Assembly (NCBI GenBank): GCA_036339465.1
Contig: JAYZAY010000079.1
Coordinates: 1-35,175 of the forward strand
Origin: Myxococcota bacterium
GTDB taxonomy: Bacteria; Myxococcota; XYA12-FULL-58-9; JABJBS01
DNA length: 35,175 bases
Reading direction: 5' to 3'
This document shows positions 1-33,204 of the stretch, piece by piece (positions within the stretch are counted from its first letter, which is position 1; each line of letters opens with the position of its first letter). Under the pieces are notes generated by a model, which was not told where the DNA came from, ran no database searches, and saw nothing but the letters and a program-made list of their open reading frames with translations. Made by a program: the position numbers and the translations under genes.

Positions 1-1
1 G

Positions 2-478
2 GCGGGGCTCAAGGGGGAAAATACTGCGGCGTCTCCGACGACGGCTACTTTCAGTGGTACTTATAAGGTTCTTCGTGACGTGGGGATTAAGTTGACTGCA
101 ACTGGCAGTTTGAGCATCGATGAGGGGATCTTCAAGGAGAAAGTAGCTGCGAATATTGATGATTTTAAGAAGCTTTTTGTTTCGCATACCCTTACTTCCG
201 GTGGAAATGACTACACCGTGAAATCTATTTGCGAACAAATGCAAAATGTTGCTTCAAAATATACAGATATTGTCGATGGTTTATTGACGGCGAAAATCGA
301 CGGGATTTCTAAGCAAACTAGAATGATCGATGATGACATCGCGGATATGCAAAGGGACTTGGTGAGTTACCAAAAAGGTTTAGAGAAAAAATTTACCCGG
401 ATGGAAACAACCATGTCAGAATTGAATTCGCAAAGTGCGTACTTAATGCAACTTGCGATGATGCCAACAGGGCAGTAG
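2..478 (+). CDS. fliD: Flagellar filament cap protein FliD, C-terminal part (5'-truncated by window edge)
   Basis: Frame open from position 2. C-terminus 'GLLTAKIDGISKQ...LEKKFTRMETTMSELNSQSAYL' matches the FliD C-terminal coiled coil. Directly upstream of fliS. Confidence 0.9.
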   Translation, partial: AGLKGENTAASPTTATFSGTYKVLRDVGIKLTATGSLSIDEGIFKEKVAANIDDFKKLFVSHTLTSGGNDYTVKSICEQMQNVASKYTDIVDGLLTAKIDGISKQTRMIDDDIADMQRDLVSYQKGLEKKFTRMETTMSELNSQSAYLMQLAMMPTGQ

Positions 479-3536: not shown

Positions 3537-3609
3537 GCCCCCGTAGCTCAGTAGGATAGAGCTGGGGATTCCTAATCCCTGTGCACAGGTTCGATTCCTG
3601 TCGGGGGCG
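3537..3609 (+). tRNA. tRNA-Arg(CCT)
   Basis: Acceptor stem GCCCCCG/CGGGGGC; D arm GCTC-AGTAGGATA-GAGC (A20 Arg identity element); anticodon arm GGGGA-TT[CCT]AA-TCCCT; T arm ACAGG-TTCGATT-CCTGT. No encoded CCA. Confidence 0.95.
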
Positions 3610-21479: not shown

Positions 21480-22370
21480 TCAAAATGAGTCGACGATATT
21501 TTCTAGTAGTTGTTTGGCTTTTGCTTGCTCGAATTGTTGTTCGGCCTCGATATCCGCAAGGTCGGCTGCGTTCGCTTTAACCACCTGGTTTAGGAGATCC
21601 CGAAATAGGTCCTCTTCGTTTTCTTTGAGGGCCCAGAATTCAGCATAGAGAACCTTTGTCCCTAAATGAGTGGGGGCTATTTCTAACGCTTTTTTGAAGT
21701 GTTCTTCAGACTTACGCATATCCCCACCGGCAAACCCAGGTGCCTTGGCATAGTAGACTCCAAAATACCGGTGTGGCGCACCATAGAAATAGGTAGGGTC
21801 TAGCTTAAGAACTCTTTGCATTACTTTGAAAATTCGGTCCTTGTATCGGAGCAGGGTGGAGAATCCTTTTTCGTTGGCCCATTTGCCAATGCATACTGAG
21901 TACCAATACATCGCGGCTTGACCGCTTAAGGGTATACTCCCAACCGCATCTTCGACCGATTCACCGCCTTCGACGCGGGTTGCAAATTCCGCCGATGCTG
22001 CCATCATGGCACGTTCGCCCATTGCAACGCCCTTGGTGAAAAACTTCATCATACCATTTTTATCGCCTGCGGTACGGAGGTGGGTATCTCCGTAGAAGTA
22101 ATAGGCCCGGGCAAGCGCGGTTAGGATTGTTTCTTTCAAAGGCGCCTTTGTGAGAGCCTCCTCCCATTTTCGGATGGCGAGTTTTACCTTTCCCGCATCA
22201 CCACGGCCGGCCCAAGCCGTGTTTGCTTCTGCGGAAAGGGCTGTGGCTTCGGCGGCGGAGGCGGTGGAACTTGAGGCAATTGGTGTCGCATTCCAGAGGG
22301 CGGTGCCACAGCCAGCCGGGGTAATTGATAATGCGAAAAGTAGGGCAAAGCGAACTGCTTTTGTAAACAT
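21480..22370 (-). CDS. TRAP-transporter T-component (TAtT/TPAT) TPR lipoprotein
   Basis: Lipobox PAG-C21; helical repeats; C-terminal LDPTYFYGAPHRYFGVYYAKAPGFAGGD..KSEEHFKKALEIAP typical of TAtT. SD GGAGAA. Confidence 0.75.
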   Translation of the reverse strand: MFTKAVRFALLFALSITPAGCGTALWNATPIASSSTASAAEATALSAEANTAWAGRGDAGKVKLAIRKWEEALTKAPLKETILTALARAYYFYGDTHLRTAGDKNGMMKFFTKGVAMGERAMMAASAEFATRVEGGESVEDAVGSIPLSGQAAMYWYSVCIGKWANEKGFSTLLRYKDRIFKVMQRVLKLDPTYFYGAPHRYFGVYYAKAPGFAGGDMRKSEEHFKKALEIAPTHLGTKVLYAEFWALKENEEDLFRDLLNQVVKANAADLADIEAEQQFEQAKAKQLLENIVDSF

Positions 22371-22397
22371 CTGATTCTCCGATCCTCTTTGCTTGTC

Positions 22398-23462
22398 TGA
22401 GCTTTCTTTACAAAAGCGGCCCCTGTTTTAAGCCGCACAACGCTGTCTATGTTATCGAGCTCACGTATCCAAGTGAAGAATGAAGCCGGGCATAGTTATC
22501 ACCGTTCACACCGCCGAATCTCTCTTTTCGAGCCTCTTCCAGGCTCTCAAAACGCTCTTTGTCGAACGCTGGGTTTAGAGAGTGGAGAAAATAGTCGGTA
22601 AATGCGTAGCCATGGCAATGCGCCTATATTACATCGATTGGGTCATTCCAAAAATCCTCTAATTTTATCGAACCGTAGATGAACGATCCTCACCGCCCTG
22701 GTTAGAATGAAAGGCAAGGTCGTGGAGGGCTCCTGGATTGGCTTTGGCGGCCTCAATAAGAGTCTTCCTTGTAGTATTGGTGTCCCTGCCTCTGCTTTCT
22801 CGGTTGAAGAGGTCGATAACGATTACGAGGTATCAATAGCCTGGCCTCCCTAGGGATGGAAGCCAGGTCAGAGACCAAAACTTGATTCTTTTTCGATACT
22901 TCCTCGATTTTCAATTTGAATAGGAACAATCTTTGTTTTAAATCTCTCGTCGCTTTACGCTTGCGGTGGCGGTTTTCTGTTCGCCCAGTCATAAAAGCCC
23001 GACCACGACACGTCCAAATTCACAGAGCACGCCTTAACTGGAAACCCGTGGTTTTATTAGAATGCGATGCTTTGACCTTTGACCTTTGGCAGGTCAAGAC
23101 AAAGCAGGTATTGCGTTCTTGGGCAAATGGACCGACTTTTTTTCAGCCGCCGACTCTTTTTTTTATGCCTATTTTCAGTCTTAAGTCTCTCAAACTCCTG
23201 TGAACAGCGATTCTTAGAAACCAAGTTGTCAGAAGCAACCGATTCTCCGAGAGATTGCACGTTCTTAAGAACAAACTTCTGGATTGCCTCTTTGATACCA
23301 ATTTCCTTGGTGCGTTCAAGGCTTTGGCACATAAATTGGTGTGAACAAGTTTACCCTACTTTCTAGTTTATTATCAGGCGGCCTCTGCTTTCGAGGCATG
23401 CTCTTAATTAAGTGTCGGCTAGAGCTTGTGTGGCTAATGTCGGGAAGTATGGGGCGAGGTAA
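22398..23462 (-). mobile_element. Decayed IS3-family insertion sequence (orfA/orfB pseudogenes)
   Basis: orfA MPRKQ.../KEIGI.../EFERLKTENR...LKK with A7G slippery site (23136-23143). orfB fragments FPVKACSVNLDVSWSGFYDWANR, NQVLVSDL, YLVIVIDLFNR, FHSNQG, MTQSM, RFESLEEAR, RLHSSLGYVS. Degenerate ends TGAGCTTTC.. (22398) and TTACCTCGCCCC.. (23462, minus). Confidence 0.85.
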
Positions 23463-23875
23463 GTGTCGGAAATATCGTGACTTTTCGGTGGTGGTATTCT
23501 GAGTGGAAGTGGTGGGTGAAGATGGGAGGTGGGGGGGGATGCATAGGGTATTCCAACTTGGATGCCGAAGAGAACTGGAAGAGTAAAAAACCACAAGGTA
23601 GATTAATATTCAGGGTTTTACTAATGTTTTCCCTGGAGAATTATGAGGCTCAATTTCCGCGTCGCTGATGCTGTATCGCACTTTAAGACTGAGGAAATGT
23701 CTTGGAATGTCTTATACTAGTGGGTTATTGGGTTAAATTACTCAGTATTTCATCCTCCAGGTCGTGGCTGTCGATGGGAGTAGGGTGAGGCGGGTTTTTT
23801 GGGGCTACAAGATTTTCGCCGTTGCTACCTGCACCTTTTCGAATTAACTGCTATACCAAAGCGTAGAACGGAAGG

Positions 23876-23909
23876 GTAGGTTGACAACCTACATGTCGCA
23901 TTTTATCGG
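23876..23909 (+). promoter_or_regulatory. Palindromic operator overlapping a -35 box upstream of the 843-aa lipoprotein
   Basis: Perfect inverted repeat GTAGGTTG-A-CAACCTAC (23876-23892) contains TTGACA (23881-23886), followed by N17-TATCGG. Confidence 0.55.
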
Positions 23910-23961
23910 CCTGAACTAAATAACTTCGAGATGCCGAAGCATAAGGGAAGGGGTACCAAGC

Positions 23962-26493
23962 ATGAAATCCGAATTAAGATTGGTTGTCTGGTTTTGTACA
24001 GGGGTTTTTTTGGCCGCCTGTGGCGCAACAGGGGAGGGTTCGGGCTGTGCTTGTGACCCAGACTATGAATATCCGCGCGGACTTGCTGAGGCGGCACCGG
24101 CTGAAAATGCAGCGTTGTTTCGATTTACCCAGCACGGTCTCAATTCGGCTGTTTCACTTTTACCCAGTTTATTGGAGACCATTTGTAAACCATCTGAAGC
24201 CGGCGCTGCAGACTGTGAGGAAGTCGAGGTTAACGGCCAGCGGCGGGCTCGGTTTTATATCGGCTCGCCTTGCTTTCCTAAACGTTATGTTACCAATTTG
24301 GGGACGATTTTAGGCCAGGTGAACGCAGAAATTAGGTCCGGCGATTGTCGAGGGGAACCCTATTTTGCAAGTTATGTGGAGATTGGCCTGGATGGTCTTC
24401 TTGAGCCAGGTAATCTCGAATTGAGACTTTATGACGGGCCTGGGGTTTCGCCGGAACAGGCTGCTTTGGAATTGGTTCTGGGCTGTCAGGATGCATTAGA
24501 TGGTAATCTAGGCAATTGCTTTAGTGAACAATTCCTAAAGATGGACCTGGAGATGGTGTGGGAGTCGGAGTATGAGGTGGCTAGCTTTTTTGGCGGGGGC
24601 ATTATGGACAATGCTTGTTATATTAAAAAGGACGATGGTGAGGAATGGGCAGCTGAAATTCAAGGTATGAGAGTCCTTCTGAAACCTAAACTGAGACTTG
24701 ATGACCAGGGGAGACCAAAACTTGATTTCGCCTATGTTATGGCTGACTCAGAATTGAAATTGGACCTTCATTTAGAACAAGATTCGGCGGATGGGAATGG
24801 GAGCCCAAGTGACCCCGCTTGTGTCGGTGGAGGATGTGACGCTCTTTGTGAGAGTTCGGACTTTGTTGGAGAGGGAGCTCAGCTATTTCTAGAAAGTCGT
24901 CGGGTGGCTACATTGATTGCGGAGGCTGTGGTTGATGCCTTACTCGCTGAGCTGGTGGATATGCCCCTAGAGGCGCTTGGAGAGGTTAAGCTTACGGATT
25001 TTCTCCCAGTGGGAAATTCGCATGCTAACGCAACCGCGTTTTTGATTACGCCGCATTTAGATACGCCGACTGTTACAGGTACCGGTTTAGATAGAGGGGT
25101 GAATTTTTATTTTAAGGGTGGTTTCTTTGGCGAAGCCGATCCTTGTGTCCCTGAGGTCAGTCCTATGAATTGGACAGTACCGAGTTTTGTTTCAGAAACA
25201 TCGACTGTGCAGACTTCCTTGGGAGCGCCGGAAGGAGAAACGATTGGTGTCGGTTACGATGCCATGGTTGCTCTTAGTGAAGGGTTTTTAGAGAGAGCGG
25301 TCTACAACCTTTTTTCAACAGGTAATCTCTGTTTGGACCTTGCGGCAGGAGACCTCAGGGAATTGAGTGGTGGCGCATTTACCCCAACGGTTTCCTTTCT
25401 CTCTCTCCTGGCACCGGGGTTGGTCGACCTGGGTCCGCCAGAGACGCCCGTAATGATTTCTTTGAGTCCCAAGTTACCAATGCGGATAAATTTTCGTTCG
25501 GACTCAGAGGAGGGGCTTGTCCAGGTGATGTGGCCACAGGTGGAAGTCTCCCTTTACCCCCAAGTCGGCGATTCCAGTTTTCGTGCCGTTTCCTTTGGCT
25601 TTGATCTTCGGCTAGGTTTGGATTTGGCGCCGACCCCAGAAGGTGGACTTCGCTTTCTTATTAAGGAATTGGCCTTGGTTGACCTTCAGCCATGGTATAA
25701 CGAGGCCAATATAGATTTTAGTCCCGAGAATATATCTGAGTTGCTGGAATCCTTTTTGCCGCTTTTATTTAGCCAGGATGATCCCATAGATATTAATTTT
25801 GGTGAGGTGCTGGATGAGGTTGGCATGACTCCGCGTTTTCTAGCGATGAAAGCAGAGGAACCAGGGGAACACTTGGGAGTCTATGTTCGGCTCTGCTCAC
25901 GGGCAGCGACAGAGAATGAGAGTGATCCAATTTGTCATGGAGCGAACTTACTTGAAGGGGAAGCCGAGATGCACGGGGAGCGCGGTGGTAATTTTTATTT
26001 CCATGGGGGGGCTATTCCATCGCTACCTATTCGTTCGGGGGAGCAGGCCAGTGCGCTTCAGGTAGGGTATCGAATTGGTGGTAAAGGACCCTGGTATGGT
26101 TTCTACGATCTTGAGGAAGATGGCTCGTTGTTGATGGCGCATCCCTTGCTTAGGTATCCGGGAACCCACCGCGTAGACTATGTTACGAGAAATCGCCAAG
26201 ATGTCCATGAGTGGAGTAGGATGGAGACGGTTTGGGTCAATATTGATGCTCCATTTTGGCAAGGAACGAAAAAGGTCGAGAAGGGTGCTGGGGTTGCATT
26301 ATCGGACGCCCCGTCCACAGAAAACATCGATGGATTTCAGCGGTCGGATTTTGGGATTTATTCAGAACGAGATGCCGTCGAGGGCGGGTGCCGCCAGACG
26401 GGTGTTGAGGCACCCTGGTGGTTTATCTTGATGTTAGCGGGAGGTTCCATCGTTGGTCGACGACGCTCCGATCTCCGAGCGAATCGATTGTAG
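23962..26493 (+). CDS. Cys-rich lipoprotein with BPI/LBP-like (TULIP) domains and C-terminal MYXO-CTERM sorting signal
   Basis: Lipobox LAA-C20. RFTQHGL and the segment MVALSEGFLERAVY...FSPENISELLESFLPLL resemble the two BPI domains. Tail GGC-RQTG-(PWWFILMLAGGSIVG)-RRR. Confidence 0.75.
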   Translation: MKSELRLVVWFCTGVFLAACGATGEGSGCACDPDYEYPRGLAEAAPAENAALFRFTQHGLNSAVSLLPSLLETICKPSEAGAADCEEVEVNGQRRARFYIGSPCFPKRYVTNLGTILGQVNAEIRSGDCRGEPYFASYVEIGLDGLLEPGNLELRLYDGPGVSPEQAALELVLGCQDALDGNLGNCFSEQFLKMDLEMVWESEYEVASFFGGGIMDNACYIKKDDGEEWAAEIQGMRVLLKPKLRLDDQGRPKLDFAYVMADSELKLDLHLEQDSADGNGSPSDPACVGGGCDALCESSDFVGEGAQLFLESRRVATLIAEAVVDALLAELVDMPLEALGEVKLTDFLPVGNSHANATAFLITPHLDTPTVTGTGLDRGVNFYFKGGFFGEADPCVPEVSPMNWTVPSFVSETSTVQTSLGAPEGETIGVGYDAMVALSEGFLERAVYNLFSTGNLCLDLAAGDLRELSGGAFTPTVSFLSLLAPGLVDLGPPETPVMISLSPKLPMRINFRSDSEEGLVQVMWPQVEVSLYPQVGDSSFRAVSFGFDLRLGLDLAPTPEGGLRFLIKELALVDLQPWYNEANIDFSPENISELLESFLPLLFSQDDPIDINFGEVLDEVGMTPRFLAMKAEEPGEHLGVYVRLCSRAATENESDPICHGANLLEGEAEMHGERGGNFYFHGGAIPSLPIRSGEQASALQVGYRIGGKGPWYGFYDLEEDGSLLMAHPLLRYPGTHRVDYVTRNRQDVHEWSRMETVWVNIDAPFWQGTKKVEKGAGVALSDAPSTENIDGFQRSDFGIYSERDAVEGGCRQTGVEAPWWFILMLAGGSIVGRRRSDLRANRL

Positions 26494-26635
26494 GCTCTTG
26501 CTCTGAAGTCGTTTTGGGGACCATCTTTGTGTGTTAAAATCCACCAATGTTTTGATAAGGTCGGTCCAATAGTCCATGGGGAAATTGACCATTGTTTCAG
26601 TATGTTTAACCGAGATTACGCGCTTTGTTCACATT

Positions 26636-26683
26636 TGGGGCACTGTGGATTTCAACAATGTTGATGTTTGCCCCATTTTTTTT
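26636..26683 (+). terminator. Probable intrinsic terminator after the BPI-like gene
   Basis: TGGGGCA/TGCCCCA stem with inner TCAAC/GTTGA stem, followed by T8 (26676-26683). Confidence 0.5.
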
Positions 26684-26705
26684 CGGTTACCGACAGCATT
26701 ATCGG

Positions 26706-26756
26706 AAAAAAAAAAGAGGGCGATGGTTGACCCCCTTACGGATGGTTTCGTACAAG
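26706..26756 (+). promoter_or_regulatory. Candidate ppdK promoter with UP-like A tract
   Basis: A10 (26706-26715), then TTGACC (26727-26732)-N18-TACAAG, ending 7 nt before the ATG. Confidence 0.5.
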
Positions 26757-26763
26757 CCTGATT

Positions 26764-29442
26764 ATGAAATTATGGTATGCATTTTCTGAAGGCCGGACCG
26801 ATGGTAATCGCACCATGGTGGACTCTCTTGGTGGAAAGGGAGCCAACTTGGCTGAGATGTGTAATCTGGGGATACCAGTTCCTCCGGGTTTTACGTTGCC
26901 TGGCGAAATTTGCAGTCTTTATTACCATAATGCCCAAGAACTCCCAGGCCTTGTCGTGGAAGCGGTTCACGAAGGTATCTCTCATATAGAAAAGAAGGTC
27001 CCTGGTTTTATTTTCGGGGACAGGGAAAAGCCGCTCTTGGTTTCTGTGCGTTCGGGGGCGCGTGTGTCGATGCCTGGCATGATGGATACTGTGCTCAATA
27101 TTGGACTTACCGACGTTACGGTGGAGGGACTTGCGAAGAGTAGTGGGAATCGTCGATTTGCTCTTGATTCGTATCGACGGCTTATCCAAATGTATGGTGA
27201 TGTCGTCGCAGGCATAGACAGAGCCAAACTCGATGCGCCGTTGACGAAGATAAAGAGTCGGCTTGGTTACAACTCGGAGAATGATTTCAAGGAAGAGGAC
27301 TTGGGTTCTCTTATTGACGAGTTGAAATCGATTTATAAAACTGAGTCGGCTCAATCTTTTCCTCAAGATCCCGGAGAGCAATTGCTTGGGGCGGTGCGAG
27401 CGGTTTTCGGTAGTTGGATGACCAAACGTGCCCAGACATATCGAAAGTTGAATGGTATCTCGGCCTCTTGGGGTACCGCAGCAAATGTTCAGGCCATGGT
27501 CTTTGGTAATTTTGGGGAGGGGTCGGGCACAGGTGTGGCCTTCAGTCGGAATCCATCAACGGGAGAAAAAAGGGTGCTGGGCGAGTGGTTGCCCAATGCT
27601 CAAGGTGAGGACGTGGTCGCTGGTATTAGAACCCCGGGGGTCTTGCATCAAGCCGATGATCCGGATGGTTCGGTAGCGGGTTCCCTAGAGAAAGCCCTAC
27701 CCGGAGTGTATGCTGAATTGCTACGGGTTATTGAAGTGCTGGAGAAGCACTATGCGGATCTGCAGGATGTCGAGTTTACGATTCAGGATAGGGTGCTCTA
27801 TCTGCTACAGACTCGTAACGGAAAAAGGACGGCACAGGCCGCTTTGAAAATTTCTGTGGATATGGTTAAGGAGGATCTTATTGATATTCGGACGGCCCTC
27901 GGTCGAGTCACCTGTGAGCAGGTTGACCAACTCCTTCACCCCCAGCTAGATCGGTCGATGCTTTCTGCACCTGTGGCAAAGGGGCTCCCTGCATCTCCAG
28001 GGGCGGCAAGTGGTCGGGTTGTTTTATCCTCAGACAAGGCCGAGGAATGGTCCAACAATGGCTTCGATGTCATTTTGGTGCGCCGGGAGACAAGCCCAGA
28101 GGACATTCACGGAATGTATGCCGCAAAGGGAATTTTGACTGCGACCGGAGGGATGACCTCGCATGCAGCGGTCGTGGCACGGGGGATGGGTCGACCATGT
28201 GTGGCCGGTTGCGATTCACTCTTTATTGATGAGGTCCGAGGAACCATCCGCTTTATTGGGGATACTGAGTGTCGGTTTTTTAGAGAAGGGGATTCGATCA
28301 CCCTCGATGGGGCTGAGGGGACAGTTTTTCCTGACATTGTTCCCACCATAAAGGTTGGTTTGGACGATAATTTTGAAGAGTTTCTGGGTTGGGCTGATGC
28401 GGTCCGGGGTATTGAGGTCCGTGCCAATGCCGATACTCCAGATGATGCGAGAACTGCGGTTGAACAGGGCGCCCAGGGAATTGGGCTTTGTAGAACTGAA
28501 CATATGTTTTTTGCGCCCGAGAGAATCTTGGCCATGAGAGAGATGATCTTGGCTGGTTCGGAAGACAGTCGTAGAAAGGCGCTTGATAAGCTATTGCCTA
28601 TGCAGCGTGAGGATTTTGAGGGTATTTTTCGGGAGATGGGCGACTTTCCCGTAACGATTCGCCTTCTCGATCCACCGTTGCACGAGTTTTTGCCCCATTC
28701 CGAGGACGAATTGCTTGACTTGGCGACGCAAAGTGAGACGAAGCTCGACGATCTACGGATGAAGCTGGCGGGACTTAGGGAATTAAACCCCATGCTTGGG
28801 CATCGAGGATGCCGATTGGGCTTGGCATATCCTGAAATTATCGAAATGCAAACAGAGGCAATTCTTGAGGCAGCGGTTAGAGTTTCGCAGGAGGGGCTGG
28901 CGGTGAAGCCTGAAATTATGGTGCCGTTGGTGATGGAAGCCGAAGAGCTTCGTCGGGTTCGAGCCATTATCAAACGAGTCTCACTGGATGTGTTCGCCCG
29001 CTATGATTGTGCGGTTGAATTTCGGGTTGGTACGATGATTGAGTTACCGAGGGCCTGTTTGGTTGCCGATGAAATTGCTGAAGAAGCCGACTTTTTCTCT
29101 TTTGGAACGAATGATCTGACCCAGACGACTATGGGTGTATCGCGCGATGATGCGGGTAAATTTCTTCCCTTTTACATCGAGTCGGAGCTTTTGGAGCGGG
29201 ACCCTTTTGCCAGTTTGGATACGCAGGGAGTCGGTAAGTTGGTGACCATGGCATGTGCATTGGGTCGGGCAAAAAAGCGTGAAATCAAGATTGGGGTATG
29301 TGGTGAGCATGGTGGCGACCCTAAATCCGTCGCCTTCTTTGTGGAGGCAGGGCTTGACTACGTGAGCTGCTCGCCCTATCGACTTCCGGTGGCTCGGCTG
29401 GCCGCTGCACAAGCAGTGATTCGGCGTGCTGAGCCCAAGTGA
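26764..29442 (+). CDS. ppdK: Pyruvate, phosphate dikinase
   Basis: LGGKGANLAEM, VSVRSGARVSMPGMMDT, phospho-His GGMTSHAAVVARG, GLCRTEHMF, NPMLGHRGCR, FSFGTNDLTQ and CGEHGG. Confidence 0.98.
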   Translation: MKLWYAFSEGRTDGNRTMVDSLGGKGANLAEMCNLGIPVPPGFTLPGEICSLYYHNAQELPGLVVEAVHEGISHIEKKVPGFIFGDREKPLLVSVRSGARVSMPGMMDTVLNIGLTDVTVEGLAKSSGNRRFALDSYRRLIQMYGDVVAGIDRAKLDAPLTKIKSRLGYNSENDFKEEDLGSLIDELKSIYKTESAQSFPQDPGEQLLGAVRAVFGSWMTKRAQTYRKLNGISASWGTAANVQAMVFGNFGEGSGTGVAFSRNPSTGEKRVLGEWLPNAQGEDVVAGIRTPGVLHQADDPDGSVAGSLEKALPGVYAELLRVIEVLEKHYADLQDVEFTIQDRVLYLLQTRNGKRTAQAALKISVDMVKEDLIDIRTALGRVTCEQVDQLLHPQLDRSMLSAPVAKGLPASPGAASGRVVLSSDKAEEWSNNGFDVILVRRETSPEDIHGMYAAKGILTATGGMTSHAAVVARGMGRPCVAGCDSLFIDEVRGTIRFIGDTECRFFREGDSITLDGAEGTVFPDIVPTIKVGLDDNFEEFLGWADAVRGIEVRANADTPDDARTAVEQGAQGIGLCRTEHMFFAPERILAMREMILAGSEDSRRKALDKLLPMQREDFEGIFREMGDFPVTIRLLDPPLHEFLPHSEDELLDLATQSETKLDDLRMKLAGLRELNPMLGHRGCRLGLAYPEIIEMQTEAILEAAVRVSQEGLAVKPEIMVPLVMEAEELRRVRAIIKRVSLDVFARYDCAVEFRVGTMIELPRACLVADEIAEEADFFSFGTNDLTQTTMGVSRDDAGKFLPFYIESELLERDPFASLDTQGVGKLVTMACALGRAKKREIKIGVCGEHGGDPKSVAFFVEAGLDYVSCSPYRLPVARLAAAQAVIRRAEPK

Positions 29443-29465
29443 TAACTCGTTATCGTGAGGGTCTG

Positions 29466-30899
29466 ATGCGCCAAAAGATGCTCTTTTTAGGTTTTTTGTT
29501 GTTGAGTGGTTGTGTTTTGGAGTTGCCGGGGTCGGCTTCGCCTGATGCGGGCCTCTATTTTCCAACAGATCTGGAGGCTAGCCCTGATGGCCGCTTTCTC
29601 TATGTGGTGAATTCCAATTTCGATCAGAGGTATCAGACTGCCTGGCTCTCTGTTTTGGACATGGACCTGCTACTGAGTAAACCAAGCGGCTCCGAAGAGG
29701 TCGTTGCACCCGGCGACGTTCTGGGTTCGAGGGAACGAGGCTTTGGTATCCGAATCATGGGTCTACCAGGTGAGTTGGCCCTCGACAGAAGTGGGAAGCG
29801 AGGGGCCATAACCCACCGAGGATTTAATCATTTGGATGAAAGCCGGGTTACCTTTCTGGACTTCGCGGATGACGGTTCGACCGTCTCATGCGGGGACCCA
29901 GCATTTGTCGGGGATTTAACACTGAGCGAACAGGCTACGGATTGTGACGAAGACCATTTTTTGATGATTCGGGTCGATGGGGGAGACAATCGCGGGGGGG
30001 AGGCTCAGGATGACGTCTCTAAATACGCTTGGGAAAACCCTTATTCTTTGTCGTTTATGGAAGTATCGGAGTCGGAGCAATTACTGGGAATCGGCTTTTT
30101 AGGCGTGGACTCAATTTATCGGCAGGTTATAGCTGAGCGGGTCCGGCTTTATGGGGTATCAGATGCAGGTGTTGAATATAAAACATCCTATGAAATGTCA
30201 GTCGCAGGGGTTTCTTCTTTGGTGACTGTCGAGGATGGTAGCGATAGGTACATGGCAGTAACGAGTCAACTGGGGGCGGGAGTGGTGAGTTCGGTGAAAA
30301 TCGATGAGAGCTTCCTGAAAGGCACCAACAATGTTTCTCTTTCCGATATACAGGGTGATGCTGGCATCCAGGAGCTGGTCGGTATGGAGCGATCGCCACG
30401 AGGTGATGGTTACTACATCTTGAGTAAGCGGCCGAATGCCCTGTCTTTCGTTAAATTTTCTCGAGAAATTGAAGTTGAGACGGGAAAGCAAGGGCTGGAG
30501 GATGCGCCGGTGTCGGTGCTAAAAGCGGACGTATTTAATACTATTTCTCTTTTCGGAACACCCGGAGATTTAGTTACTTGGGAAGCAGACTCAGGTCATG
30601 AGTATGTCGCTATAAGCTCTTTTGGACGCGACCTCCTGCAGGTTTTTCTTCGAAAGGGAGATGGTTTCGAATTGGTATACCGCACGCCTGTTTTTGGCAG
30701 GGATTCGGATACTGGCGGTGTTGATGAAGGACCTTTTGCACTCCAATTGGTCCATCGGCAGTCCCGTTATTTTTTGGCCGTTACGCATTTCTTCGAGCAC
30801 GCTCTCTATCTTTATGAGGTAACTGGGGCACCGGATGCGTTTAAACTAGTTTATAGGATTCGAGATGAAGACTTTGAGAGCGTGGGCCGTTTCGATTAA
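29466..30899 (+). CDS. Lipoprotein, YncE/YVTN-like beta-propeller (unknown function)
   Basis: SD GAGGG, ATG 29466, lipobox LSG-C16; blades such as YFPTDLEASPDGRFLYVVNSNFD and GPFALQL..LAVTHFFEH. Confidence 0.65.
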   Translation: MRQKMLFLGFLLLSGCVLELPGSASPDAGLYFPTDLEASPDGRFLYVVNSNFDQRYQTAWLSVLDMDLLLSKPSGSEEVVAPGDVLGSRERGFGIRIMGLPGELALDRSGKRGAITHRGFNHLDESRVTFLDFADDGSTVSCGDPAFVGDLTLSEQATDCDEDHFLMIRVDGGDNRGGEAQDDVSKYAWENPYSLSFMEVSESEQLLGIGFLGVDSIYRQVIAERVRLYGVSDAGVEYKTSYEMSVAGVSSLVTVEDGSDRYMAVTSQLGAGVVSSVKIDESFLKGTNNVSLSDIQGDAGIQELVGMERSPRGDGYYILSKRPNALSFVKFSREIEVETGKQGLEDAPVSVLKADVFNTISLFGTPGDLVTWEADSGHEYVAISSFGRDLLQVFLRKGDGFELVYRTPVFGRDSDTGGVDEGPFALQLVHRQSRYFLAVTHFFEHALYLYEVTGAPDAFKLVYRIRDEDFESVGRFD

Positions 30900-33204
30900 T
30901 TTGTTGCTCCTATTCGGTGGGGTCGCATGTGAAACCAGGACCGAGCCCGTTGGAGCAGACCTTGAGCATTTGACCGACTTGGTGGTGGGCGGAACGTCGA
31001 CCAAGAAGCTCTTCTTCTTGGATAATGGCACCGAGATGATTCAAGCGTTGGATTTAGACGCGGACATGGCGATTTCCGATTGGGTTAGGAGCCCAAGCCA
31101 CTACCTCCCATTGCATATTTCGGTGGGGGAGCCGGCCTCAAAGCTTTCTGCTTCTTTGGATGGAAAATATGTGGTGGTGGCCACGGAGCGGGGGGAAAGT
31201 TTTAAGGTTTTGGATGCAGACACCTTTAAGTGGAAGACAGGTGTTGGTGGGCATACCGGCTTTTCTGTTCCGGGTTTGGATGGACTTGGCGAGTTGGTGG
31301 CCGTCCCCGGTGACTGTGGAAGTGACTGTCTGGCGCGCTTTCTTGGGGTCTCTGAGGTGAATTCCAAAGTTGTGTTGTTTTCGTTTGTTGCCGATGGAAA
31401 GAATCTTGCTCTTGAGATTGATAGCACATGGACATTTACTTCGACGCCCAACGATCTGGCGCTCCGCCCTGATGGTCAGGGAGTCTGGGTACTGCATTCG
31501 GCGGCCGGAAGCCTGTCGTTTATTGATCTGAAAACCAACACCAAGGAAGAGGCGGCTATTTCTGTAGGCTCTGGAGCTGTGCGTGCCGATTACAGTACCG
31601 ACGGGTCTTATCTTTTATTGATGAGGCCGGGGTTATCGGATTTTCTAGTCCTAAAGAGCGATACCACAGGGGGTGGGAGTGGATCACTTTCGAAAGTTGC
31701 ACTCAACGCGACCCATCTTCCTGACACCGAATGCCTAGAAACTTGTGGGGTTTCAGCCTCAGCCTGTGAATCGCTTCACCCTGCCAATGCTCAGCTTTGT
31801 GTTTCGGATGAAGGGTTTCAGACCGTGCCGGATAAAGACTATCAAGGACTCTATCTTGGGGGCGTACCATCGGATTTGGTGCTTTTAGGGGGAGGTGGCG
31901 GTGATGCGGCACTGAAAGTTGGTTGTAATCCGCAGGAAGAGGGGGAGACGATCTACGAAACTTATTCGGAATATGGCTTGGTGGTCGGATTGGATGGCTC
32001 GGTCATGTTTATTGGTCTGAAATTGGAAGATGGTACAGAGCAAATTAAATTGGTCGAACAGGGGTTTTGTCGGCAGGGAAGGGAGTTGGAGCAGCCCTAC
32101 GCGAGGTTACCATACAATGAGAAGACCGAATCCATGAAGGATATTTTGGATCCTTGTCTAACTATGCCCACCAACGATGCTAGATTTGAATGTATTTCCG
32201 TTGCCGACGATGCTGGAGTGTTGCTCTCCCACGGGATCACCAGTGAATTTCGACTTTATGCGACCTGGGAGGGAGTTGTTACTGGGCCCTTGGACCGGTC
32301 AAAGGGAGGTGGCGTTCTTAGCGTCTTATCAGGTGATACGGTTTTAACGGATGTGGGTGTCAATCTAGGAGACTACAAAAAGTATATTTTAGCGCGTACC
32401 GAGGCCGAAGCGAAAGGGCTGTGCTCATCGGAAGACTTGTATTGTGGCGACGTCGTTGAAATCCTAACGGCGCCGGTAGATTCGCCGGAGTGTCGGGAGG
32501 CGCTGGGTACTGACTTTGAGCGGCTTTGCGCCCTGGAACGGCGTGTGAGTCGCTGGGAAGCTGATTCGGAAGGCGAGGATGTCTTGGTTCTTGACCGGGC
32601 TCTCACTTTAGAATGTTTTATAGGGGGGGAGATTGCTTATAGAATTCGAGTCGGGGATGCATTTAGATTTGAAGTAAATGAACTTCCTGGGGTGTATGTA
32701 AGGCTCGCACCTGGGAGCAAGTTTGGTCTCGGGGGGATTCACGGGACGACCACCTCGGCTGCTTTTAAGCTCAAGGAGTTGGCCTTAGGTTCAGAAGGCT
32801 CCCTGCATTCCAAATCCGCTTGTGAGCGTTTCGATAAGGTAGGTAGTCCTCGGGATGAATTTTCCAGCATATTGTCACGTAGTGCTGAATATGGCCTGAG
32901 ACTGGAGGACCGTTATTCCGACAGCAACGGCAACAGGAATTTACTGGTGGATTTACAGGAGATGGCGGGATTTTTGGGCGTTTCGTGGACAGTGCCTGCA
33001 GGTTTAGCGACTTATCGTGTAAAAGCGGGGGCTATGCCACGGGTTTATCTTGGGTTTGGGTTCAGCTGGGCAAATACCGGTAGCCCTAGAGCAGCGGTGC
33101 TTGGATTTCAGCCCGAAGGTGGAACCAGCAAAGATGGTGAAAACTTCGATTTTTTAGATGATTATTGGTTCGTTGATCCCAGTCGATTCACAGTTATTCG
33201 CTAG
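30865..33204 (+). CDS. Large Cys-rich lipoprotein with N-terminal beta-propeller (unknown function)
   Basis: Lipobox GVA-C22; blades SASLDGKYVVV, PNDLALRPDGQGVWV, DYSTDGSYLLL; many Cys in the C-terminal half. Overlaps the previous gene by 35 nt. Confidence 0.65.
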   Translation: MKTLRAWAVSINLLLLFGGVACETRTEPVGADLEHLTDLVVGGTSTKKLFFLDNGTEMIQALDLDADMAISDWVRSPSHYLPLHISVGEPASKLSASLDGKYVVVATERGESFKVLDADTFKWKTGVGGHTGFSVPGLDGLGELVAVPGDCGSDCLARFLGVSEVNSKVVLFSFVADGKNLALEIDSTWTFTSTPNDLALRPDGQGVWVLHSAAGSLSFIDLKTNTKEEAAISVGSGAVRADYSTDGSYLLLMRPGLSDFLVLKSDTTGGGSGSLSKVALNATHLPDTECLETCGVSASACESLHPANAQLCVSDEGFQTVPDKDYQGLYLGGVPSDLVLLGGGGGDAALKVGCNPQEEGETIYETYSEYGLVVGLDGSVMFIGLKLEDGTEQIKLVEQGFCRQGRELEQPYARLPYNEKTESMKDILDPCLTMPTNDARFECISVADDAGVLLSHGITSEFRLYATWEGVVTGPLDRSKGGGVLSVLSGDTVLTDVGVNLGDYKKYILARTEAEAKGLCSSEDLYCGDVVEILTAPVDSPECREALGTDFERLCALERRVSRWEADSEGEDVLVLDRALTLECFIGGEIAYRIRVGDAFRFEVNELPGVYVRLAPGSKFGLGGIHGTTTSAAFKLKELALGSEGSLHSKSACERFDKVGSPRDEFSSILSRSAEYGLRLEDRYSDSNGNRNLLVDLQEMAGFLGVSWTVPAGLATYRVKAGAMPRVYLGFGFSWANTGSPRAAVLGFQPEGGTSKDGENFDFLDDYWFVDPSRFTVIR

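Follow-up and report, generated by a model that had tools for sequence, protein, structure and literature searches.

In this study, we analysed a gene of an uncultured marine myxobacterium, an open reading frame (ORF) at 23962..26493 (+ strand, ATG start, 843 aa in the ORF listing) of a stretch of DNA of 35,175 nt that is called the window below. The product is, in our judgement, rather probably an extracytoplasmic, membrane-tethered lipid-binding protein with a double-TULIP fold like that of BPI and CETP, of which we infer the lipid binding, the cargo and the location. It belongs to a new, unnamed and widespread family within a known kind of protein, and its architecture is distinctive in being doubly tagged, with a predicted lipobox at the N-terminus and a MYXO-CTERM-like tail at the C-terminus. 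Public copies bearing a name are listed as 'hypothetical protein [Myxococcota bacterium]'. An earlier reading, made from the sequence alone and without database searches, had proposed a BPI/LBP-like protein with both tags and had placed the gene at exactly the coordinates that we find.

Double TULIP fold

The structure was predicted with AlphaFold2 (AF2) from an alignment of 128 rows (A3), from which sequences longer than 1010 aa had been left out. The model has a mean predicted local distance difference test score (pLDDT) of 83.9 and a predicted template modelling score (pTM) of 0.82, with low confidence only at residues 1-28, 664-687 and 765-818. In a Foldseek search against PDB, BPI was the top match (1ewf, E 1.7e-17; 1bp1, E 4.5e-17, template modelling score by target 0.59), followed in the ranking by LBP, CETP and clostridial P47/OrfX. 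A Foldseek-independent search of 48,161 PDB representatives gave TULIP-fold proteins in all top 12 rows, and eukaryotic PF01273/PF02886 clusters were among the neighbours found by a structure search of the ESM Atlas. The order of BPI is kept in the model, with two tandem domains, in each of which helix A is followed by a long wrapped beta-sheet and by helix B. Strands were assigned from the model at the positions where a central beta-meander would be expected (47-56 and 338-342; 434-439 and 622-646), and the end-to-end structural alignment is consistent with the BPI-type order. A two-domain BPI/LBP/CETP-like TULIP fold, as proposed earlier, is thereby supported by the model and by both PDB structure searches. 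Also, the collinearity with BPI, which had been drawn from segments of the human protein, gains structural support, since model residues 47..647 align to BPI 1..456. As judged from these structural alignments, in which identity is about 12%, the relation to BPI is one at fold level only. The gene and the parts of its product are arranged as follows (all on the + strand).

23943..23953, +, Shine-Dalgarno-like purine-rich stretch, 8 nt 5′ of the ATG, read from the sequence
23962..26493, +, whole gene from the ORF list, coding for the 843-aa protein with lipobox, double TULIP, beta-sandwich and Cys/transmembrane helix/RRR tail
23962..24021, +, predicted lipoprotein-type signal peptide, residues 1-20, ending in the lipobox L17-A18-A19-C20 (sequence, lipobox rule)
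24022..24099, +, short, acidic tether near the N-terminus (residues 21-46) that includes C29, which is conserved, and a Y-x-Y-P38 motif
24100..24981, +, first (N-terminal) TULIP barrel (residues 47-340), made of strand 47-56, helix A (57-74), a long twisted sheet and helix B (292-332)
24982..25917, +, second (C-terminal) TULIP barrel (residues 341-652), made of helix A' (440-452), a sheet, helix B' (588-602) and the closing strands 622-646
25918..26031, +, linker, residues 653-690, of low confidence at 664-687 (pLDDT <50)
26032..26256, +, beta-sandwich of fibronectin-III/Ig-like type (residues 691-765), which bears R-V-D-G-G-x-W, a motif of the family
26257..26382, +, disordered tether, residues 766-807 (pLDDT 38-48)
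26383..26493, +, MYXO-CTERM-like tail, residues 808-843 (sequence; homologue-tail model)

The two segments that had first suggested BPI fall at the expected places of this layout. The N-terminal motif ALFRFTQHGL is present at residues 51-60, i.e. at 24112-24141, and the start given before, 24121, was a trivial 9 nt late. The segment from 25255 (residue 432) spans the second barrel from its opening strand and helix (434-439 and 440-452) to its closing helix (588-602). In an alignment of 55 sequences that includes the query (A1), P38 is invariant and C29 is Cys in 50 members; the pLDDT of the model climbs from about 43 to 87 near residue 30. The ectodomain holds 16 cysteines, of which seven are kept in at least 50 of the 55 members, and these conserved residues may be counted in favour of an extracytoplasmic setting.

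Signals at the two chain ends

For the N-terminus, a PROSITE-style lipobox rule was applied (basic n-region, hydrophobic h-region, [LVI][ASTVI][GAS]C with the Cys at 15-35). It is passed by L17-A18-A19-C20, which has its Cys at position 20 and is preceded by K2/R6 and a hydrophobic stretch. The lipobox column is Cys in 54 of the 55 aligned members. The strict rule is passed by 16 of the 25 closest full-length sequences (query included), and in the members that fail it L/V/I-x-x-C is still visible by eye. LspA is encoded in the genome (105.1 bits, above cut-off), and an adjacent, Lgt-like gene stays slightly under its own cut-off (110.8 bits; cut-off 118.9). Together, these data support a predicted Lgt/LspA lipoprotein signal, and the lipobox of the sequence-only reading is retained.

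The C-terminus consists of G808-G809-C810, eight polar residues (R-Q-T-G-V-E-A-P), a hydrophobic stretch of 14 residues (819-832), R833-R835 and eight further residues before the stop; the AF2 model predicts a helix at 819-842. The C810 column holds Cys in 43 of 55 members and gaps in the remaining 12. By regular expression, the order Cys, helix and basic tail was found in 76 of 101 homologues of 600-1100 aa and in 23 of the 25 closest full-length sequences including the query. A hidden Markov model (HMM) was built from 81 homologue tails, with the query excluded, and run on the C-termini of the 7,957 ORFs of the genome. The query tail ranks first among them (E 8.6e-6), and both ORFs positive with the MYXO-CTERM model TIGR03901 (on contigs C19 and C54) are within the top seven. 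TIGR03901 itself has four matches genome-wide, of which these two are above the cut-off and none is the TULIP ORF. Its author considers a sensitive model of this tail hard to make, as stated in the preprint (10.1101/2023.06.07.544157), from which the accession of the myxosortase core model NF040914 was also taken. This core model has one match in the genome (117.4 bits, cut-off 100).

About a dozen ORFs of the genome have tails of Cys, transmembrane helix and Arg, including the two above the TIGR03901 cut-off. In at least six of the genome's ORFs, G-G-C-[QR]-Q-[TS] precedes a helix rich in Trp and Phe, a local signature of which TIGR03901 misses most cases; these tails lie on contigs C60, C1, C27, C44 and C67 and at 26383-26493 of the window. 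About four of 15 tail-bearing ORFs have lipobox-like N-termini, and the others include type-I-looking signals; judged from these predicted signals, the joint presence of lipobox and sorting tail is not unique to the TULIP family in this genome. We read the tail as a putative divergent MYXO-CTERM, to which its architecture, tripartite as in the published description of this tag (PMC11980579), and its genomic context point and the curated HMMs do not. Of the MYXO-CTERM anchor proposed earlier, the Cys/helix/RRR architecture at 26383-26493 thus stands and is joined by a myxosortase in the genome, and the TIGR03901 match is missing.

Family and distribution

An exhaustive HMMER search of 1.84 billion representatives retrieved 185 proteins at E ≤ 1e-3, 77 at E ≤ 1e-10 and 27 at E ≤ 1e-30; a word-indexed search retrieved only one homologue, and the single protein used as query against the genome contigs gave 30 pattern matches, none of which was confirmed. 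In the ESM Atlas, the protein falls in a 96-member cluster whose known taxa are Myxococcota. Of 301 genomes sampled across the phylum, 178 have a match to the A1 profile at E ≤ 1e-5; among those of high quality it is 148 of 255, and by genus 94 of 137. One genome in the tally of 178 is flagged as unpublished (G195); its match is weak, and no other result rests on it. In all, 51 of the matching genomes, mostly large genomes of one family, are weak (E 1e-5 to about 1e-10, counted by hand), and the remainder, about 127 genomes, match solidly. The profile is matched over its full length in the window's own family and order as well as in several further families. Two large families match only at profile positions of about 290-806, which cover the second barrel together with sandwich and tail. 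From the alignments, the predicted lipobox and the tail are traits of the family.

Twenty-three long homologues (1100-1973 aa; e.g. P0035, P0062, P0065, P0071) share the part of the chain that corresponds to residues of about 210-740. The Cys/helix/Arg tail was found in none of these 23 proteins, and they may form a non-surface branch of the family. A paralogue is present on another contig of the same genome (G000:C78:35265-38298), with the lipobox F-S-L-A-C and a tail of Cys, helix and R-P-K-P-K; it is split by a frameshift into two frames near 36940-37115, either as a pseudogene or by an assembly error. Tandem TULIP genes occur in a same-order relative (L021, G038:C54, 7881-12688), and the hit table suggests a second same-order tandem pair at G101:C238 1252-5897; some of the tandem copies have in-frame stops.

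Charge, geometry and proposed mode of action

The LPS (lipopolysaccharide)-binding N-domain of BPI is cationic. The mature protein studied here has a net charge of -70 and an isoelectric point of 4.3, its N-terminal barrel carries -29, and all 55 aligned members have a TULIP region of negative net charge. Because the protein is strongly acidic, unlike cationic BPI, a tethered lipid carrier or exchanger, placed in the envelope or at the surface, is favoured over an LPS-binding killer, and the BPI-like LPS binding that had been considered before is unlikely on charge.

According to descriptions of double TULIPs, the central sheet contains the strand that precedes helix A and the two that come after helix B (PMC6791001; 10.1101/2025.09.09.675085). 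Since the first and the last two strands are found there, both tethers should leave from the waist of the tube, with the tips of the barrels free. The sequence-only reading had pictured a lipid tunnel with one potential anchor at either end; such an opposition is true of the chain and, by the analogy just given, probably untrue of the fold.

The protein would be exported by the Sec system, its N-terminal signal would be processed as a lipoprotein signal, and Cys20 would be acylated via Lgt/LspA. The C-terminal helix may at first retain the chain in the inner membrane. According to the MYXO-CTERM model as published, Sec export is followed by lipidation of the Cys, cleavage by MrtX and type II secretion to the surface, and its authors liken this transfer to the recognition of lipoproteins by the type II system (PMC11980579). 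By this model, Cys810 would be modified, the helix and Arg cluster would then be removed by the single myxosortase of the genome, and the folded protein would be handed outward, most likely to the cell surface. Two flexible tethers of about 26 and about 45 disordered residues would hold the BPI-sized tube at its waist, and the two hydrophobic barrels could take up and hand over phospholipids or other hydrophobic cargo, and not LPS via a cationic tip. The hand-over might take place between the cell's own outer membrane and another membrane or a vesicle.

The fused fibronectin-III-like sandwich may dock on the tube, as TipB does on TipA of Bdellovibrio. When the sandwich was docked to the TULIP body by modelling, the median of the interface score ipSAE was 0.45 (runs 0.65, 0.45 and 0.23), and the best of three controls reached 0.00; the partner pLDDT was at least 66 and the contact agreement at least 89%, with no interface given. 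Of 157 solved complexes, 18 reached the docking mark with scores of 0.60 or less; of 215 mismatched pairs two passed, both in this score range. These modelled runs lend weak support to docking of the sandwich.

Myxobacteria swap outer-membrane lipids and lipoproteins between cells and prey on bacteria. No surface lipid-carrying protein of myxobacteria was described in the literature that we searched. With a lipid-carrier fold and two membrane-anchor signals, the TULIP family could supply such a carrier. The proteins might even be surface lipid-exchange devices throughout the phylum, i.e. BPI-sized tubes with both chain ends lipid-anchored in the outer leaflet and with the fused sandwich as a TipB-like gate, which would pull lipids from, or push them into, prey, kin (outer-membrane exchange) or vesicles. 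We regard this extension as unlikely; if true, such devices would be a bacterial extracellular counterpart of the eukaryotic contact-site lipid transfer proteins.

Counter-evidence and alternative explanations

Several results weigh against the reading as a surface-tethered double TULIP. The whole protein has no Pfam, NCBIfam or PDB sequence match at E ≤ 10, and the A1 profile gave one chance-level row and nothing else against PDB sequences. When PF01273, PF02886 and PF14356 were run over the whole genome, this ORF remained untouched; PF01273 and PF02886 have sub-cut-off matches at other places, and PF14356 (DUF4403) stays without any match, both genome-wide at E ≤ 10 and among the 55 aligned sequences at E ≤ 0.1. 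In these 55 sequences, PF02886 matched two (best E 0.056) and PF01273 one (E 0.015), all below significance, and none of 34 more distant homologues matched either model at E ≤ 0.01. Bridging to the Pfam BPI models via homologues was therefore rejected as proof of sequence homology (three sub-significant matches of 55, none of 34). Searches of NCBIfam with the N-terminus, the sandwich and the last 50 residues separately gave only a sub-threshold LptM signal-like match at the N-terminus. For the tail, TIGR03901, TIGR03382 and TIGR04564 have no match at E ≤ 10, neither in the whole protein nor in its last 50 residues, and the curated tail models matched few of the 55 aligned sequences at E ≤ 0.1 (TIGR03901 two, TIGR03382 two, Synerg-CTERM four). 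The charged residues R811 and E816 separate the Cys from the helix, and eight residues trail the Arg cluster; these features may be the reason why TIGR03901 misses the tail, or the tail may be no substrate. GspD and GspF models match the genome below their cut-offs only, and type II secretion is indistinguishable here from type IV pilus parts. Also, a single oligo-dT marine RNA library contains four 151-nt contigs that fall inside the TULIP gene and are possibly carried-over DNA; this is too little to claim transcription. The sequence-only reading had named as grounds for its own rejection a structure without TULIP barrels and the lack of profile matches to BPI/LBP and to MYXO-CTERM. The TULIP structure was found; both profile matches are absent, with none at E ≤ 10 between the protein and the LBP_BPI_CETP(_C) models of Pfam.

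The blindness of TIGR03901 to the tail and the charged residues between Cys and helix could also mean that the C-terminal helix stays uncleaved in the inner membrane and that the N-terminal lipid is routed by Lol to the outer membrane. The TULIP body would then be a lipid bridge or shuttle between the two membranes, like the SMP-domain tethers at eukaryotic contact sites. The different kinds of anchor at the two chain ends and the long flexible linkers agree with such a periplasm-spanning tether, the absence of the tail from all 23 homologues of at least 1100 aa indicates that proteins of this fold need not be sorted to the surface, and the TipA authors discuss TULIP assemblies of periplasm-scale length (10.1101/2025.09.09.675085). 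However, the C810 column is Cys in 43 of 55 members, one and the same HMM picks up this tail and the TIGR03901-positive tails of the genome, and a myxosortase is encoded; in M. xanthus the tag is described as cleaved and the proteins as reaching the surface (PMC11980579), and one BPI-sized tube is shorter than the periplasm-spanning systems of 250-260 Å cited in the TipA preprint. We therefore consider a periplasmic tether improbable. Quite improbable, too, is that only one of the anchors is real, either because signal peptidase I cuts the N-terminus and Cys20 is simply the foremost of several cysteines in disulfides, or because the tail is an ordinary stop-transfer helix. The strict lipobox rule is passed by just 16 of 25 sequences, and type-I-looking signals occur in other tail-bearing ORFs (about four of 15 are lipobox-like). 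Against a single anchor stand the Cys after a hydrophobic stretch in 54 of 55 members, with L/V/I-x-x-C visible even where the strict rule fails, and the tail evidence from C810, the homologue-tail HMM and the myxosortase.

In line with the sequence-only reading, the protein could instead bind, at the surface, the LPS of prey or of neighbouring cells and permeabilise or recognise these cells. Such a role would fit BPI and LBP as the best structural matches in a phylum that includes predators, and TipA is reported to destabilise bilayers, for which its authors propose a BPI-like effect (10.1101/2025.09.09.675085). With the strongly acidic charge of the family on the other side, we see little chance for such a weapon or sensor. 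The fold could finally serve a role without lipid, for instance that of an adhesin or of a structural rod on the surface: the function is deduced from the fold alone, and many MYXO-CTERM proteins are given as adhesins or hydrolases (PMC11980579). Yet the characterised fold members among the structural matches all bind hydrophobic ligands, and TipA, the only bacterial double TULIP studied, holds lipids according to its description (10.1101/2025.09.09.675085), which makes a non-lipid role very improbable. A lipid-binding protein tethered outside the cytoplasm remains the reading that we prefer.

Gene and genomic neighbourhood

Pieces of the gene were found in three marine or seawater DNA runs of different studies and are identical or one letter off, with no indels; the frame at 23962..26493 is therefore no assembly artefact. 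The G+C content is about 50% across the whole window. Promoter and terminator scans of 22300-27000 gave results at shuffle level only, and an Rfam scan of the whole window gave nothing besides one tRNA. The following features lie around the gene.

3537-3609, tRNA gene, the sole Rfam match in the window
21480-22370, TAtT-type TPR lipoprotein, upstream and divergent
26764-29442, pyruvate phosphate dikinase, downstream
29439..30899, +, 486-aa lipoprotein without Pfam family, lipobox L-L-S-G-C, YncE-like seven-bladed propeller (lead)
30865..33204, +, 779-aa lipoprotein without Pfam family, lipobox G-G-V-A-C
3′ of the 779-aa lipoprotein gene, rimM, then trmD

Synteny was compared for 21 loci, i.e. 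the window and 20 loci from 18 other genomes. The string of TULIP gene, 486-aa lipoprotein, 779-aa lipoprotein, rimM and trmD was found in four of them: the window, one same-family relative and two same-order relatives (L018, L021 and L022). The dikinase is inserted between the TULIP gene and the 486-aa lipoprotein gene in the window and its family-mate only, and these two genes directly adjoin each other in the two same-order relatives. ESM Atlas neighbours of the 486-aa lipoprotein are labelled 'YncE family', which is a lead only. As the linkage is confined to close relatives, no functional link is claimed for the two lipoprotein neighbours. A tipB-like operon partner was also considered and rejected, with no small beta-sandwich gene beside the TULIP gene.

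The gap of 1.5 kb 5′ of the gene (22438-23961) contains no ORF above about 95 aa and no Rfam match. In three relatives, a FadB-like gene, a fusion of 3-hydroxyacyl-CoA dehydrogenase and enoyl-CoA hydratase, lies directly upstream of the TULIP gene:

L018, 5770-7809, FadB-like gene
L019, 5852-7903, FadB-like gene
L027, 9721-10746, FadB-like gene

A remnant of this fatty-acid oxidation gene was sought in the upstream gap of the window, and none was found.

Comparison with known systems

A BPI-type fold in bacteria is not new, since DUF4403 and TipA/TipB are already published, and the sequence-only reading, in which two-domain BPI/LBP/CETP proteins were described as best known from eukaryotes, was overstated on this point. 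According to the sources cited, the known bacterial TULIPs comprise YceB and P47/OrfX, and DUF4403, DUF2140 and DUF2993 are predicted ones (PMC6791001, PMC5507252). Within the ESM Atlas, 30% of one Myxococcota cluster already bear PF01273. Our literature search retrieved no paper on a TULIP or BPI-like protein of Myxococcota; the fused-domain figure in the extended view of the TipA preprint may show some. The practical gain of the present family definition lies in annotation, as no Pfam or NCBIfam model covers the family. Also, the protein offers a test case for whether one protein can use both the lipoprotein and the myxosortase route, and for how fused beta-sandwich domains relate to the TipB adapter.

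The closest known fold is that of human BPI (1BP1/1EWF), CETP (2OBD) and LBP (4M4D), with Pfam PF01273 and PF02886. Compared with BPI, the query has about 12% identity, no profile match and about 160 extra loop residues, and it is strongly acidic instead of cationic; it is bacterial, starts with a lipobox signal, has a beta-sandwich fused to the barrels and ends in a sorting tail. YceB of E. coli (PDB 3L6I) and clostridial P47/OrfX share the TULIP fold in bacteria, and YceB is a lipoprotein as well. DUF4403 (PF14356) has been predicted to be a full-length bacterial homologue of BPI (Levine 2019, PMC6791001). Like the query it is bacterial and has two TULIP domains, described there with a BPI-type beta-meander interface, but it is a different sequence family with a core of about 460 residues against about 600 in the query.

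The TipA/TipB proteins (bd2538/bd2539) of Bdellovibrio bacteriovorus are reported as a bacterial BPI-like double TULIP with an adapter, for which a crystal structure was presented (10.1101/2025.09.09.675085). As TipA is described there, it has a signal peptide only, with neither a lipobox nor a sorting tail, whereas both are predicted for the query. TipB is described as a separate C2-like protein, whereas the sandwich of the query is fused and fibronectin-III-like (Z ≤5). The query is set apart from TipA by this description, and no TipA chain was among the structures in the PDB searches. The same authors show a Planctomyces protein with a C-terminal sandwich (10.1101/2025.09.09.675085), and the fused sandwich of the query recalls, by analogy, both this domain and the TipB adapter.

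With regard to sorting, the legend of Table S1 in PMC11980579 names no BPI or TULIP domain among the 35 MYXO-CTERM proteins of M. xanthus. The query resembles the MYXO-CTERM/MrtX system (M. xanthus TraA; TIGR03901; NF040914) in its Cys motif, helix and Arg cluster and in the one myxosortase-core gene of its genome. Its tail differs from the curated MYXO-CTERM in having G-G-C-[QR]-Q-[TS] in place of the G-C-G-C type logo given in PMC11980579, and in being joined to a lipobox.

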